64,000 nucleotides of DNA from a virus. Taxonomy: Duplodnaviria > Caudoviricetes. The stretch is taken from positions 8,683 to 72,682 of IMG/VR virus record IMGVR_UViG_3300032272_000009, one strand, 5' to 3'. Both the position numbers and the translations under genes were made by a program. Within the stretch, counting starts at the first letter, position 1. Every line of letters starts with the position of its first letter. This document shows, piece by piece, positions 1 through 5,437 of the stretch. Below the pieces are notes generated by a model that was given only the letters and a program-made list of their open reading frames with translations, made no database searches and was not told the origin of the DNA.

Positions 1-164
1 AGTCTAGTTACAAGCTGGATCATCTCAAACAAGTTTTTGTCATCTATGCGCACAAATATTTCCATGACTTTACCGTCATCATCATGGTTTATTGTTGTGT
101 AGAATGTGTGCTCTTGTGTCTCACTCTTGTAAGTTGCACCTTTGCTAATTCTTTCAATACTCAT
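1..164 (-). CDS. Partial CDS running off the left edge; TSCPD-like (class II ribonucleotide-reductase-associated) small protein
   Basis: Read manually: MSIERISKGATYKSETQEHTFYTTINHDDDGKVMEIFVRIDD...; ATGA overlap with the upstream gene; the Y-x-T-I-N-x-D-x-D-G-x-x-x-E-I-F pattern resembles TSCPD domains. Confidence 0.45.
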   Translation of the reverse strand, partial: MSIERISKGATYKSETQEHTFYTTINHDDDGKVMEIFVRIDDKNLFEMIQLVTR

Positions 165-719: not shown

Positions 720-943
720 TTCTGATCTGCCTCATATTTTTCCATGAACCTCTCAATAACGGTCATGACATTTTTATCAAATTCTTCGGTAGCGGCTATT
801 GATCCTCCATTGTCTTTGTGGGCATTCAAGGCATTCAATACTATATTGTTTACTTTGATACCGGTATCAGAACTATGCTGTACTAGCCAGTCCTCAAGCT
901 CTTGTGGCAAGTACATACCACGTCTAACTGTGTTATCTGCCAT
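716..943 (-). CDS. Ribbon-helix-helix (Arc/CopG-like) DNA-binding protein
   Basis: N-terminal VRRGMYLPQELEDWL...SSDTG.KVNNIVLNAL strand-helix-helix pattern. Confidence 0.55.
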   Translation of the reverse strand: MADNTVRRGMYLPQELEDWLVQHSSDTGIKVNNIVLNALNAHKDNGGSIAATEEFDKNVMTVIERFMEKYEADQK

Positions 944-1128
944 TATATTAATCCTTTCTCATCTGCTAACCACTGCGTTATAAAAATAGATTCTGGGTTG
1001 TTTTCATCAATCCCACAATAATCTTGAATTTGCGATTTAGGAATCCATACAGGATCACCTGATGCATCAAGAACCTGTAAAGCCTTATCTGTAAATGCGG
1101 TAACTTCAACTTCTACTTCAATTGTCAT
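943..1128 (-). CDS. Hypothetical phage protein
   Basis: 61-aa ORF with AGGAG SD; beta-rich TDKAL...VWIPKSQI motif typical of small phage proteins. Confidence 0.65.
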   Translation of the reverse strand: MTIEVEVEVTAFTDKALQVLDASGDPVWIPKSQIQDYCGIDENNPESIFITQWLADEKGLI

Positions 1129-1146: not shown

Positions 1147-1301
1147 TGGTTGGGCTGGCAGGATTCAAACCTGCACGAAGATTCTCACTATGGTCACGGG
1201 GAAGGGTTCCAGCCATTCATCATCTTCTAGCATCGCTTTAACAGAAATCAGGATGCTTACCCTATCATAGAAAGTTAGTGTCTATATTCCACCACAGCCC
1301 A
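1147..1301 (-). ncRNA. tRNA-like RNA (155 nt) with about 70 extra nt in the anticodon/variable region
   Basis: Acceptor stem TGGGCTG/CAGCCCA plus encoded ACCA; Leu/Ser-type D arm GTG-GAATATAGA-CAC; T arm GCAGG-TTTGAAT-CCTGC; the middle is far too long for a tRNA. Confidence 0.7.
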
Positions 1302-1308
1302 TAAACTT

Positions 1309-2415
1309 TTACTGTCTCCAGTTTACTGCGCTATCAATCAGTTGTTTCATTGATACTATTGCTTGTCGCCTCATATATTTCTTATTTGCTTTTAGAAAAT
1401 CTTTCAGTTCATCTGCCGGAGTTCTTGGTTTCGGCATTGAAACATGTACATATGAACTTGACTGTTTGATGATTCTCACATAATTTGATGGAACTACTGC
1501 GGCCTTCTTGCCAAGCTCAGTAAGTTCATTTGCTTCTTGTTGCGTCGAAACTGGTACAGAATCGCCAAATGATTTTGTGAACAACTCAGCACAAGAATCA
1601 GCTATATCAGAAACGCTATAGCTAGGAGTCGTATCACTAAGATAACTTACATCTGGTACGGCATTGGCAATGTCTAGTGCTATGCTCTCATTTCTGCCTT
1701 TTACCTGACCCCACATGTTACCAGTAATCCACTGTAAATCAAAGTCACTAACAGTCTGGCGGTCTCTTTCTATTTTCAAAAATTCAGGTTTGATGTTATA
1801 ACCATACTTTAGTTTCGTGTCAGTAACATACAATCCATTGACATACAGTTTACCGGGTTCATCTAGTAATATTTGACCTTTTGAGACGTCTATAGTCTCA
1901 CCAGCTTCTCGCATTTGCAAACAGTTATTAACAACCAATTCAAGTTCTTCTTTCGTCATGTTGCGAATAACGAAACTAAGGTCTTCAGAATCTTTGTGAG
2001 ACTGCATATAATATTCGTCAATGTGCAATACTTGATCACCAAATGTCTCACTATATTTATATACAGGAATCCACGTTACATTGCCATTATAGACTATGAT
2101 TTCTCTGTCTTCTCTAGCAAGCACCGCCATAGCAAGCTTGAAACCCTCTCCAAACTTCCCTATTGACCCAACTTCATCACGCTTAGTGCTATTCCCAAGG
2201 ATAAGATCAGATGGTGACAACTTGACACCTTCGCTGGTTATAATCAAAGAGCTATCAAGAATATCGAAACTGAACTTTCCTACTCCATCAATTGCGTTCT
2301 GTATCAATTCACGAATTGCTTCTTGAATGCCCCAATGATTAACGTAACCTTTTGATATTGGTAACACAAAAGATTCAAATGGTTCTGCACATGTTACCTC
2401 TTTTAGAGCGCTCAT
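1309..2415 (-). CDS. GHKL (HATPase_c/Hsp90-like) ATPase
   Basis: AIRELIQNAID (N box), LILGNSTK, IGKFGEGFKLA (G2 box); start chosen at MSALKE behind a GAGGA SD. Confidence 0.8.
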   Translation of the reverse strand: MSALKEVTCAEPFESFVLPISKGYVNHWGIQEAIRELIQNAIDGVGKFSFDILDSSLIITSEGVKLSPSDLILGNSTKRDEVGSIGKFGEGFKLAMAVLAREDREIIVYNGNVTWIPVYKYSETFGDQVLHIDEYYMQSHKDSEDLSFVIRNMTKEELELVVNNCLQMREAGETIDVSKGQILLDEPGKLYVNGLYVTDTKLKYGYNIKPEFLKIERDRQTVSDFDLQWITGNMWGQVKGRNESIALDIANAVPDVSYLSDTTPSYSVSDIADSCAELFTKSFGDSVPVSTQQEANELTELGKKAAVVPSNYVRIIKQSSSYVHVSMPKPRTPADELKDFLKANKKYMRRQAIVSMKQLIDSAVNWRQ

Positions 2416-2561
2416 TGCTATTTGTCCTCGTTTCAATTTATTGCTTATGAAGCTAATAATAGCATTATAAAACATCTTTTGTCAACATATCATTTTACTC
2501 CTTATATATAGGGCTGTATCAGGCACAGATATTTGATGTTATGGTTGCGTGTTTTTGGTTG

Positions 2562-2637: not shown

Positions 2638-2922
2638 ATGAGAATCAATTATAAAGGCCATGCAATAGATACAAAAGTTGTAACCGGCCAACTGACAAAA
2701 GCAAGCATAAAAAGTTTAGATGTGTTCTTCTCATATGATGAACCTATTGCTATTTGTTATCCTCAAAAAGCTATAATTAATGCTGAACCTGCATGTTCGT
2801 CAACAACTTCTCGACATATAAACCATGTTAAGAAACTATACACTGAAAGAGAAGAGTTTCTGTATATCGATTTTCACATCAAGATGGAACAACTACTGAA
2901 TGGTGAATGGGGCGAATCATGA
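2638..2922 (+). CDS. Hypothetical phage early protein
   Basis: Start at MRINYKG behind GAGG; FSYDEPIA...SSTTSRHIN motif seen in small phage proteins. Confidence 0.65.
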   Translation: MRINYKGHAIDTKVVTGQLTKASIKSLDVFFSYDEPIAICYPQKAIINAEPACSSTTSRHINHVKKLYTEREEFLYIDFHIKMEQLLNGEWGES

Positions 2923-3428
2923 TATACAAAATAGGCCAAAATGTAGTATTCGAAGATATGGTTAAGGGTTCATTCAGAATATCAGAAATTATATGTACAG
3001 TATGTGAACCAGAAGATCCGCAGGATGATGAATATGATTTGTGGATATATAACCCTAATCGCGGAGAGAAACATGGCGTCATAAAACACAATATAAGAGT
3101 TGTGACAATTGCTGATTATGAAAAGGCTTCCCGACTAAAACAATCAATTGGTCGCAGTATTAGACCATTGCAAAAAAATACTGATGTTGAAATAATAGGT
3201 TTTACCGATCTTGCAAGATTTTCAGAAAAAGAAACTTATCGCAATGCATCAGAAAAATGTGTTGATGATAGCCTAGATAAAATAGACGCAGCTTTGTTTT
3301 CTGGAGATGTGTTTATGGATAGAAAGAATATTAAAATTATTGAAGAGTACATTGAACGTTGGAGCAGAGAGATAAGTTCTAATAAAATGCTATTAGATCA
3401 AATTGATGATGAAGAAAACAAATCTTAA
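2919..3428 (+). CDS. Hypothetical protein
   Basis: ATGA overlap with the previous gene; about 169 aa. Confidence 0.65.
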   Translation: MIYKIGQNVVFEDMVKGSFRISEIICTVCEPEDPQDDEYDLWIYNPNRGEKHGVIKHNIRVVTIADYEKASRLKQSIGRSIRPLQKNTDVEIIGFTDLARFSEKETYRNASEKCVDDSLDKIDAALFSGDVFMDRKNIKIIEEYIERWSREISSNKMLLDQIDDEENKS

Positions 3429-3442
3429 CGAAGGGGTACAAA

Positions 3443-5437
3443 ATGTCAGAATTTAAAGATTTTAGAAACGCTGTAAGCAATAAGATTGATGCCTTGGAAG
3501 CATCTGGGTTGCTATACACCGATACAGATAAAGATGAACTGTGGGAAGCGTACTTGGAGAGTTTCAAAGAAGGAACAAATCCCATATACAAAGAGCGAAC
3601 TGAACATGACTGCCAGTGTTGCAAACAATTCATTCGTGCATGTGGATCAGTTGTTGCAATCGTTGATGGTGAGCTTGTCTCTGTCTGGGATATTGAAGTT
3701 GGCGGTATCTATCAGGTCGTTGCTGATGCGCTGTCAGCACTTGTAAAATCAAATCATATCAATAACAAGTACCTGCATTACGAAGCACAGATCGGTGTTG
3801 AGCGCAATCATCAAGTTGTAAAAGGCGGAAATGTAAAGGCTTGGGATCACTTCAGTCACGTTCTTGGTCAAGCTTATGTAGTCAAAGATGGAACAATTGA
3901 TTCCAAATTAGGATCTCACAAAACCTCTATTCAGACTTTTAATAGGGCATTAGAATCAATCACGCCTGTGTCTGTTGATATTGTTCTTGATCTTATGGAT
4001 CAAAACTCTCTATATCGTGGTGAGGAACACAAGGCATCAGTTGAGAGATTTAAAGCTCACCAAGATAAATATAAAGCTCTTGACGACAAACAGAAGGGGT
4101 TTTATTTATGGTCAAACACAGATATGGGTGTTGCCGGAATTCGCAACTCTGTTATTGGCTCACTACTGGTTGACCTGTCAGAAGGGAAAGAAATTGATCA
4201 AGCTGTGAATAGTTTTGAAGACAAGGTATCGGCTGGAAAATACAAACGCACAATGGCTGTTGCGACTAAAGGTATGATTGACAAGGCAGAAGCAAAATTT
4301 AACAAGCTTGGTTTGCATGATTCTATTGATCGCAGATATGCTTATATGGATGATTTGACAATCAATAACGTAATCTTTGCCAACAGAGCAACAAAAAAAT
4401 CATTTAACGTATTTGACGAAATGAAAAACGAAGTGTCAGTTGATGTGTCGAAATTTGATAAAGTAGAAGAGATTGGTATCGATGTATTTATTCGAGATGT
4501 GCTTCCAAAAGCAGATGCAATTGAAATGATGTTTGCAAACAATCATATAAATAACTTGGTAAGCCTGATTGCACCAGAAGTTGCAAGTGCGCCTAACATT
4601 TTAAAATGGGATAATAATTTCTCGTGGTCTTACAATGGTGAAGTTGCAGACTCTATCAAAGAGCGAGTAAAGAATGCTGGTGGCAATGTTGATGCATATA
4701 TGCGTGTTTCATTATCTTGGTATAACACTGATGATTTAGATATTCATGTTATCGAGCCTAATGGTAATGAGATATTTTATGGTAGCAAAATATCTCATGA
4801 CACTGGTGGCAGATTAGATGTTGATATGAACGTTAACAGCTTAAGGCGAGATGCAGTGGAAAACATCATGTGGGCGAATGAAAACAGAATGATTGAAGGT
4901 GAATACAAAGTTTTCATTCGCAATTATACACCTCGTGAAACTGTTGATGTTGGTTTTGAAATTGAAACAGAATGGAATGGCAAGATCAAAAACTTTGCTC
5001 ATCCTAAGAGAGTTACCAAGGATGTATCTGTATTGACGTTCACTTACTCAAAGGCTGGTGGCGTCAGTATCAGAAGCGAAATGAAAGAATCAAATATCGT
5101 TAAAGAGGCATGGGGGATCAATACTCAAGGTTTCCATAACGTCTCAATGGTAATGAATTCACCTAATCATTGGGATGGCGAATCAACGGGAAACAAACAC
5201 TGGTTCTTTATGCTTGATAAATGTAACAATGAGAAACCATCAAGAGGGTTTTATAATGAATTCTTGAGAAATGAGTTTAATGAACACCGTAAAGTGTTTG
5301 AATTATTAGGCTCGAAAATGAAAACAAAGGTTTCTGATAATCAACTTAGTGGACTGGGTTTTTCTTCAACAAAGAGAGATTCGGTTCTTTGTAGGGTGAG
5401 TGGTAGTTTTAACCGTGTAGTAAAAATCAACTTTTAA
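3443..5437 (+). CDS. Large uncharacterised phage protein with a YfaP/DUF2135-like domain
   Basis: 664 aa; HDCQCCKQF Cys cluster; RVSLSWYNTDDLDIHVIEPNG...GRLDVDMN...AVENI matches the YfaP-like pattern. Confidence 0.7.
   Translation: MSEFKDFRNAVSNKIDALEASGLLYTDTDKDELWEAYLESFKEGTNPIYKERTEHDCQCCKQFIRACGSVVAIVDGELVSVWDIEVGGIYQVVADALSALVKSNHINNKYLHYEAQIGVERNHQVVKGGNVKAWDHFSHVLGQAYVVKDGTIDSKLGSHKTSIQTFNRALESITPVSVDIVLDLMDQNSLYRGEEHKASVERFKAHQDKYKALDDKQKGFYLWSNTDMGVAGIRNSVIGSLLVDLSEGKEIDQAVNSFEDKVSAGKYKRTMAVATKGMIDKAEAKFNKLGLHDSIDRRYAYMDDLTINNVIFANRATKKSFNVFDEMKNEVSVDVSKFDKVEEIGIDVFIRDVLPKADAIEMMFANNHINNLVSLIAPEVASAPNILKWDNNFSWSYNGEVADSIKERVKNAGGNVDAYMRVSLSWYNTDDLDIHVIEPNGNEIFYGSKISHDTGGRLDVDMNVNSLRRDAVENIMWANENRMIEGEYKVFIRNYTPRETVDVGFEIETEWNGKIKNFAHPKRVTKDVSVLTFTYSKAGGVSIRSEMKESNIVKEAWGINTQGFHNVSMVMNSPNHWDGESTGNKHWFFMLDKCNNEKPSRGFYNEFLRNEFNEHRKVFELLGSKMKTKVSDNQLSGLGFSSTKRDSVLCRVSGSFNRVVKINF

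Follow-up and report, generated by a model that had tools for sequence, protein, structure and literature searches.

A 155-nucleotide (nt) tRNA-like element lies between two genes of the same strand in the genome of an uncultured tailed phage from sediment. It combines the intact acceptor and T half of a tRNA with a D arm of the leucine type and an encoded CCA end. The genome is an IMG/VR virus record of 72,682 bases that is rated 100% complete (IMGVR_UViG_3300032272_000009). The window, that is the whole stretch of 64,000 nt that we analysed, corresponds to bases 8683-72682 of this record, and the element is found on its minus strand at positions 1147-1301. We propose, with a probability of roughly 45%, that the element is a tRNA-Leu-derived, non-decoding RNA that is excised from an operon transcript by the tRNA-processing enzymes of the host.

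The RNA is numbered 1-155 here, and a window coordinate equals 1302 minus the RNA position. In the acceptor stem, RNA 1-7 (window 1295-1301) pair with RNA 145-151 (window 1151-1157) through seven of seven Watson-Crick pairs, starting with U1-A72. RNA 152-155 are the discriminator A73 and a genome-encoded CCA, which together with the 3' acceptor strand occupy window 1147-1157. The T arm (window 1158-1174) consists of RNA 128-132 paired with 140-144, again exclusively by Watson-Crick pairs (five of five), and the loop UUUGAAU. The D arm (window 1278-1292) has a stem of 3 base pairs (bp; RNA 10-12 with 22-24) and a 9-nt loop. All 15 pairs of the acceptor, T and D stems are thus intact, and the ends of the RNA are those of a canonical tRNA in acceptor, T arm, discriminator and CCA. 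A preliminary description of the element, made from the sequence alone, had reported this anatomy: a perfect 7-bp acceptor stem with U1-A72, an encoded ACCA end and about 70 nt too many between the D and T arms. All of this is present, on the minus strand; the tRNA-like feature is real and its anatomy had been drawn correctly. The T loop had been called unusual as well. We compared it with 806 phage tRNAs, namely those in loci L002-L043 and L162-L280, where position 56 is C in 800 cases and U, as in the element, in just four.

The covariance model of the Rfam tRNA family, RF00005, aligns to the element from end to end (model positions 1-71) with 26.1 bits. This corresponds to an E value of 0.0029 in a 500-nt search; over the 72.7-kb genome the same match has an E value of 1e-4 and is the only tRNA-like match. 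The likeness to tRNA is far beyond chance. The score lies below the gathering score of the family (29 bits), and a default Rfam search is therefore silent on the element. ARAGORN at default settings, with intron mode on or off, predicted no tRNA in the window or the genome, and no transfer-messenger RNA (tmRNA) either.

Positions U8 to U16 of the element are identical to those of the tRNA-Leu(UAA) genes of two related phages (L014:8532-8618 and L015:6846-6932). The end of the D-loop and the 3-bp D stem likewise follow the class II pattern, and the discriminator is A73, as in tRNA-Leu. Judged by D arm and discriminator, the element is a class II tRNA-Leu frame, and the D arm, previously described as of Leu or Ser style, is specifically of the Leu type. 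Its D-loop is two bases shorter than that of tRNA-Leu, and G18G19 are gone; nor does the element show the anticodon of a tRNA-Leu (NAG or YAA) or a variable arm in the usual range of about 10-20 nt. The search for a source tRNA, or for a clue to the host, remained negative: the same 5' part was matched 105 times in 185,579 prokaryote genomes, none of these matches being a source, and the only tRNAs among them were tRNA-Val or tRNA-Gly, on the other strand or unrelated. The same acceptor stem at ordinary tRNA size gave two chance matches in IMG/VR, neither of which is a tRNA.

The element fills a 180-nt gap between its neighbours, with spacers of 7 nt on the 5' side and 18 nt on the 3' side. 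The genome is compact, and this gap is among its few non-coding ones. No open reading frame (ORF) of at least 40 amino acids overlaps the element on either strand. A 22-codon ORF can be read within it (window 1164-1232, minus strand, ending in the T loop); it lacks a ribosome-binding site and is probably meaningless. The upstream gene (window 1309-2475, minus strand) is an ORF of 388 amino acids, given as 368 in the record and assigned to PHROG 6077, with weak signals of likeness to GHKL ATPases. Its stop codon precedes the RNA 5' end by 7 nt. The downstream gene (window 943-1128, minus strand) encodes 61 amino acids and belongs to PHROG 8389. Its ribosome-binding site, AGGAG, follows the CCA, and its start codon lies 18 nt beyond the element. 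At the head of this leftward operon, ahead of the 368-amino-acid gene, we detected a near-consensus, sigma-70-like promoter site (window 2456-2485, minus strand; 11 of 12 consensus matches and an extended -10 TG), back to back with rightward genes that start near 2533-2907. No terminator-like site was found on the minus strand between this promoter-like site and the element. The operon continues through many small genes and a few nucleotide-metabolism genes towards the left end of the genome, and it is probably early.

From anatomy and position, we infer the following course. The ancestor would have been a class II tRNA-Leu, of which the acceptor and T half, A73 and CCA were kept, while the anticodon and variable region were replaced or expanded by about 70 nt, so that the element would no longer decode. 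It would be transcribed as the second unit of the leftward operon. Bacterial RNase P recognises the stack of acceptor and T arm with a 3' RCCA, and since the element has kept this stack, its excision from the operon transcript is to be expected: host RNase P would cut exactly at the RNA 5' end, 7 nt past the upstream stop codon. In E. coli, trimming by RNase E and exonucleases usually takes place where an A/U-rich trailer follows a CCA, and RNase E or 3' exonucleases would trim at the A/U-rich stretch that directly follows the CCA of the element. The product would be a stable, CCA-ended RNA of about 155 nt, and the polycistronic mRNA would be severed between the 368-amino-acid gene and the block of small genes.

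Several observations support this proposal. There is not a single mismatch in the 12 bp of acceptor and T stem, and ACCA is present, where damage would be expected in a decaying copy, as it is seen in remnants in related phages (L022 and L044, described below). The element is the sole full-length match of the tRNA model in the genome, it fills its gap exactly, and it stands behind a promoter-like site with no terminator in between. Furthermore, at least 12 similar oversized Leu-type genes recur in viral contigs, several of them placed alike. That the element is probably non-decoding is backed by its scores below the thresholds of both tRNA finders, by an unstable anticodon-like hairpin with the loop triplet AUG, and by the loss of G18G19.

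The surplus region between the D and T arms can be drawn in two mutually exclusive ways. In the minimum free energy (MFE) fold it forms three hairpins, at RNA 27-43, 45-73 and 75-125. The first (window 1259-1275) has the exact size of an anticodon arm, with 5 bp, two of them G-U, and a 7-nt loop that contains U33, AUG and A37. The second (window 1229-1257) has a 6-bp stem and a 17-nt loop. The third (window 1177-1227) stands at the position of a class II variable arm and is closed by a 6-bp stem that stops 2 nt short of the T stem. In the other drawing, RNA 32-36 pair with 110-114, 39-43 with 95-99 and 45-50 with 68-73 as nested helices. These segments are fully complementary, as the preliminary description had claimed, but its likening of them to a miniature tmRNA helix 2 finds no thermodynamic or comparative support. 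As bare helices the two drawings are about equally stable (-30.3 kcal/mol nested versus -31.7 kcal/mol for the three hairpins). We computed z scores against dinucleotide shuffles, which gave -1.3 to -1.4 for the whole element and -1.0 for the third hairpin; hairpin 45-73 is the only sub-hairpin that reaches about -2.2.

The weak alternative anticodon arm that had been proposed is the first hairpin of the MFE fold. By itself it has a stability of 0 kcal/mol and competes with two other pairings. The term 'anticodon-less' is thus uncertain, as this hairpin, though weak, matches an anticodon arm exactly in size and includes U33 and A37. Two bases, instead of one, separate the D stem from this next helix, and the stretch from the anticodon-like hairpin to the T stem measures 84 nt instead of the normal 13-15 nt. 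ARAGORN at a lowered threshold and with introns allowed (-i -ps80) gives a third drawing, in which 72 nt (window 1193-1264) are inserted at position 37/38 of a tRNA of 83 nt; this tRNA has the anticodon AUG, a variable region of 12 nt and one U-U mismatch among the pairs of its anticodon stem. AUG is not a Leu anticodon, and we know of no bacterial tRNA that carries it.

Other identities were considered for the surplus region and for the element as a whole. No second copy of the insert was found in the phage genome, and a repeat or mobile origin was rejected on this ground. Besides tRNA, no Rfam ribozyme, riboswitch, intron, YrlA or tmRNA family matched the element. The likeness to a box C/D sRNA (sR23, 14.3 bits, E 0.4) places the D box inside the T loop and was dismissed as chance. 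An archaeal-type intron was rejected as well: a bulge-helix-bulge motif was not found by eye, and the annotated phage genes show no sign of an archaeal host. In tRNA genes, group I introns bring a catalytic core of at least 200 nt into the anticodon loop; the element has only about 70 extra nt and no Rfam intron match at E values up to 10, so a group I intron, which had already been judged too large to fit, was discarded.

The phage is isolated at the DNA level, with no match in GenBank phages beyond generic T-arm matches. The flanking proteins share 48-53% identity with their best relatives, those closest to the upstream protein being P0002-P0004 (Logan/ENA). A covariance model built on the element and run against 42 related loci and whole virus records returned no oversized homologue. 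In IMG/VR, neither the exact 28-mer of the 3' end nor a gapped pattern of D arm and T loop was matched, and a loop-only pattern in the JGI metagenomes gave three matches, all by chance and within coding sequence. Among public sequencing runs, the stretch itself occurs only in two sediment DNA runs, both metagenomes, from different studies; no RNA run that contains it is listed. In the second sediment study, one difference in 279 nt was counted across the element and its borders versus six in 315 nt of the upstream gene. Resting on low-depth contigs, this comparison is a weak hint that the element is better kept than the neighbouring coding stretch.

Related phages carry degenerate tRNA-like remnants. 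One, in L022, has five of seven acceptor pairs. Another, at L044:1501-1562 (minus strand), is a clear tRNA remnant, a 5' half like that of tRNA-Gln(CUG) without a T arm; the nearest homologue of the 388-amino-acid protein in IMG/VR (35% identity) is encoded about 1.5 kb upstream of it. A 120-nt stretch at L018:6831-6950 has a canonical T arm and a paired acceptor-like stem; it can also be read as an ORF of 45 codons with its own ribosome-binding site, and may be a tRNA relic or a small gene.

We then scanned IMG/VR for a Leu-type D arm followed by a T loop 95-125 nt further on. This pattern returned more than 119 stretches, mostly neighbouring tRNAs of clusters, and a filter was applied that demanded pairing between the 7 nt that precede the D arm and the 7 nt that follow the T arm. 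Among the stretches listed, at least 15 passed with six or more of seven pairs, 12 of these with seven of seven, whereas chance alone would give about 0.1. The 15 comprise three tandem tRNAs and twelve single genes of 134-166 nt, which gives at least 12 oversized Leu-type genes (L167, L178, L184, L190, L194, L201, L224, L230, L249, L253, L259 and L268), a set that is chosen by pattern and is not a defined family. Their acceptor and T stems are perfect or nearly so, and 40-86 extra nt lie in the anticodon loop, the variable region or both. The covariance model of the element matches nine of the 12 at E values of 1e-9 to 1e-4; for the exceptions L167, L178 and L230, the listed matches are elsewhere or absent. 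Five are solitary, with no other ARAGORN tRNA in the locus (L201, L259, L224, L190 and L184). L194, L190, L201, L178 and L249 stand between same-strand ORFs, immediately behind a stop codon, 14-25 nt ahead of a start codon, or both. Several of the twelve genes are placed between a stop codon that directly precedes them and a ribosome-binding site that closely follows.

Some of these genes look like clean tRNA-Leu genes with an insert of 49-86 nt in the anticodon loop, and in five of the 12 a Leu anticodon appears once the insert is removed. The clearest case is L253:1324-1459 (minus strand), an otherwise canonical tRNA-Leu(UAA) with a 49-nt hairpin in the anticodon loop, a normal variable arm and ACCA. 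It lies within a cluster of 18 tRNAs whose other Leu gene is tRNA-Leu(UAG), and a group I intron would have to be much longer than its insert. Homology of the inserts to that of the element or, in the comparisons made, to one another could not be demonstrated. The best similarity to the insert of the element was found in L201 (local P about 0.01 before correction for 15 comparisons, global P 0.10); the similarity is not significant after correction, and the motif common to both, used as a search pattern, matched L201 only. In a model-fitted alignment of nine oversized elements, where 95% of positions are paired, the covariation count looks strong; it was discounted for the middle helices (3-5), because the structure itself had shaped the alignment and the middle regions lack homology.

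A wider claim can be built on this set. The element may belong to a widespread, undescribed class of phage genes, in which Leu-type frames carry non-group-I inserts of 40-90 nt; its members would either be spliced by an undescribed bacterial or phage route, or be non-decoding mimics that are freed from operon transcripts and act on the tRNA-handling machinery of the host. We regard this claim as speculative and rather unlikely.

Oversized tRNA-like genes were also noticed elsewhere. The 106-kb viral contig L167 has such matches at 2873-3056 (184 nt) and 3478-3619 (142 nt), among nine ordinary clustered tRNAs. A 141-nt tRNA at L045:101-241 (also in L047) scores 55 bits with RF00005 and has a normal cloverleaf and an anticodon loop with AUA and A34, and 66 nt stand where the variable loop would be; three related large phage contigs carry this gene. 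At L046:101-210, in the tRNA cluster of a 202-kb contig, lies a 110-nt tRNA of 52 bits with an insert of about 35-44 nt in the anticodon loop.

Beyond the surroundings of the element, the gene content marks a tailed phage that brings replication genes of its own. It includes a tape measure, a central tail fibre, a portal and a large terminase as well as a DNA polymerase and helicases. The leftward operon also encodes a protein with the N-terminal domain of a dATP/dGTP diphosphohydrolase (L053:7783-8328, minus strand) and a TSCPD-domain protein (L053:8490-8846, minus strand, overlapping window 1-164); the two suggest that the phage manipulates the nucleotide pool or has modified DNA. Among the phage genes we detected no RtcB, no Rnl2-type RNA ligase and no CCA-adding enzyme; the search for a ligase of the T4 Rnl1 type ran without a working control.

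Some of our findings weigh against a processed, non-decoding RNA. No homologue with the same insert was found in the 42 related records, IMG/VR or the JGI metagenomes, and thus there is no evidence of selection on the element. Its middle folds no better than shuffled sequence (z +0.26 for RNA 25-127 and +0.12 for the nested region 32-114). The elbow contacts G18-U55 and G19-C56 are missing, since GG is absent from the D-loop and U stands at position 56. All four normal phage tRNAs with U56 carry GA instead of GG in the D-loop, the covariation expected between positions 19 and 56; the element lacks a comparably placed GA too, and its elbow may therefore be defective. Moreover, a perfect acceptor and T half in a single lineage can also reflect a recent insertion that has not yet decayed. 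The main rival explanation builds on such a history: a tRNA-Leu broken by one or more insertions, functionless, still tidy because the event was recent, and tolerated as a spacer. It accounts for an insert that is unique and without demonstrable homology to those of the other oversized elements, for a middle no more structured than chance, and for the lost G18G19, U56, the extra nucleotide between D and anticodon stems and the non-Leu anticodon; degenerate tRNA remnants also occur in related phages. The preliminary description had named, as the mark of a decayed tRNA, a unique and unconserved insertion beside homologues of ordinary size; the insertion is indeed unique and unconserved, but no ordinary-sized homologue was found. 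Decay sits less well with 15 of 15 intact pairs in acceptor, T and D stems and a kept CCA, with a compact genome that leaves few non-coding gaps, and with the recurrence of similar oversized Leu-type genes whose shells are intact. The near-identity in the second sediment study, where nearby coding sequence differs by about 2%, points the same way, if weakly. On balance we consider a pseudogene possible but somewhat unlikely.

A trans-acting mimic of tRNA, that is a decoy or sponge for leucyl-tRNA synthetase (LeuRS), EF-Tu, a tRNA-targeting defence nuclease or the ribosome, as the preliminary description had proposed, appears distinctly less probable. The intact acceptor and T half with A73 and CCA on a Leu-type frame would suit such a role, as would the position in a probably early operon. 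In E. coli, anticodon and variable arm are not identity elements for LeuRS, and A73 is the main determinant; since the enzyme ignores the anticodon, a mimic on a Leu frame is plausible, and phage tRNAs that counter anticodon nucleases are known. Yet no sequence feature indicates a particular partner, and no conservation was found. The D-loop lacks the features that LeuRS uses, namely G18G19 and the way they are placed, the element would escape recognition by nucleases that read the anticodon loop, and a part in ribosome rescue is unsupported as neither a tag reading frame nor pseudoknots are present. We think it improbable that the element is an intron-containing tRNA from which 72 nt (window 1264-1193) are removed by a pathway other than self-splicing to yield a decoding, 83-nt class II tRNA. 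ARAGORN in intron mode builds this model, and the inserts of 49-86 nt in the anticodon loops of other viral Leu-type genes, with L253 as the clearest case and Leu anticodons in five of 12, speak for it; but the model appears only below the default threshold, no mechanism for such splicing is known, and its product would read AUG, contain a mismatched U-U in the anticodon stem, lack G18G19 and carry U56. The insert is too short for group I, it has neither an Rfam intron or ribozyme match nor a bulge-helix-bulge visible by eye, and ligases of the RtcB or Rnl2 type were not detected among the phage genes, with the limit on Rnl1 given above. Least probable, and very unlikely, is a chance likeness, or a protein-coding or regulatory stretch that happens to resemble tRNA. 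The score below the Rfam cut-off and the readable 22-codon ORF would allow it; the genome-wide E value, four tRNA landmarks in the right order and spacing, a D arm that equals that of real tRNA-Leu, the missing ribosome-binding site of the small ORF and the lack of any ORF of at least 40 amino acids on either strand all argue against it.

Set beside known RNAs, the proposed non-decoding RNA shares with class II tRNA-Leu the 7-bp acceptor stem, U8, the 3-bp D stem, A73, CCA and a T arm with 5-bp stem and 7-nt loop; a helix that closes 2 nt before the T stem recalls the long variable arm of this class. Unlike tRNA-Leu (82-87 nt), it measures 155 nt, lacks G18G19, carries U56 instead of C56 and an AUG loop in a weak hairpin, has one extra nucleotide between D and anticodon stems, and stays below the thresholds of Rfam and ARAGORN. 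The oversized Leu-type viral genes resemble it in their D arm, in length (134-166 nt) and, in many cases, in their solitary position between same-strand ORFs, but most of them retain G18G19 and C56. The phage T4 encodes two stable, non-decoding small RNAs, species 1 (rnaC, 139 nt, AF158101 70908-71046) and species 2 (rnaD, 119 nt), which are long known and unexplained. Both are phage-encoded and oversized like the element, and rnaC has a canonical T arm and an acceptor-like stem in its 3' part, lies on the same strand as the neighbouring genes, and is likewise expected to be released by tRNA-processing enzymes. In contrast to the element, which is solitary within a protein operon, the T4 RNAs belong to a tRNA cluster, and rnaC has no Rfam tRNA match, no Leu-type D arm and no encoded ACCA end. 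The model of the element scores 13.2 bits on rnaC, no more than on ordinary T4 tRNAs, and thus indicates no specific homology. The tRNA-like domain of tmRNA and YrlA also keep the acceptor and T half while the anticodon arm is replaced. However, the element has G3-C70 instead of G3-U70, no tag ORF and no pseudoknots, and was found by neither ARAGORN in tmRNA mode (-m) nor the Rfam tmRNA models at E values up to 10, in line with the earlier view that it is not an alanine-charged tmRNA. In YrlA the tRNA-like module is internal, whereas that of the element is formed by the RNA ends, and the Rfam YrlA model gave no match.

The element adds a solitary, clearly tRNA-Leu-derived copy inside a protein operon to the tRNA-like RNAs of phages, and it should be annotated as tRNA-like or pseudo-tRNA rather than as a tRNA that decodes. 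Oversized genes of this kind are overlooked or wrongly labelled by standard tRNA finders. The recurring Leu-type class outweighs the orphan copy in interest: our literature searches turned up neither small non-group-I inserts in phage tRNA genes nor oversized Leu-type genes of this sort. If some of these genes are spliced, bacteria or phages would possess a route of tRNA splicing other than self-splicing. If they are processed, they would act as built-in RNase P cleavage sites that reshape the operon transcripts of phages.

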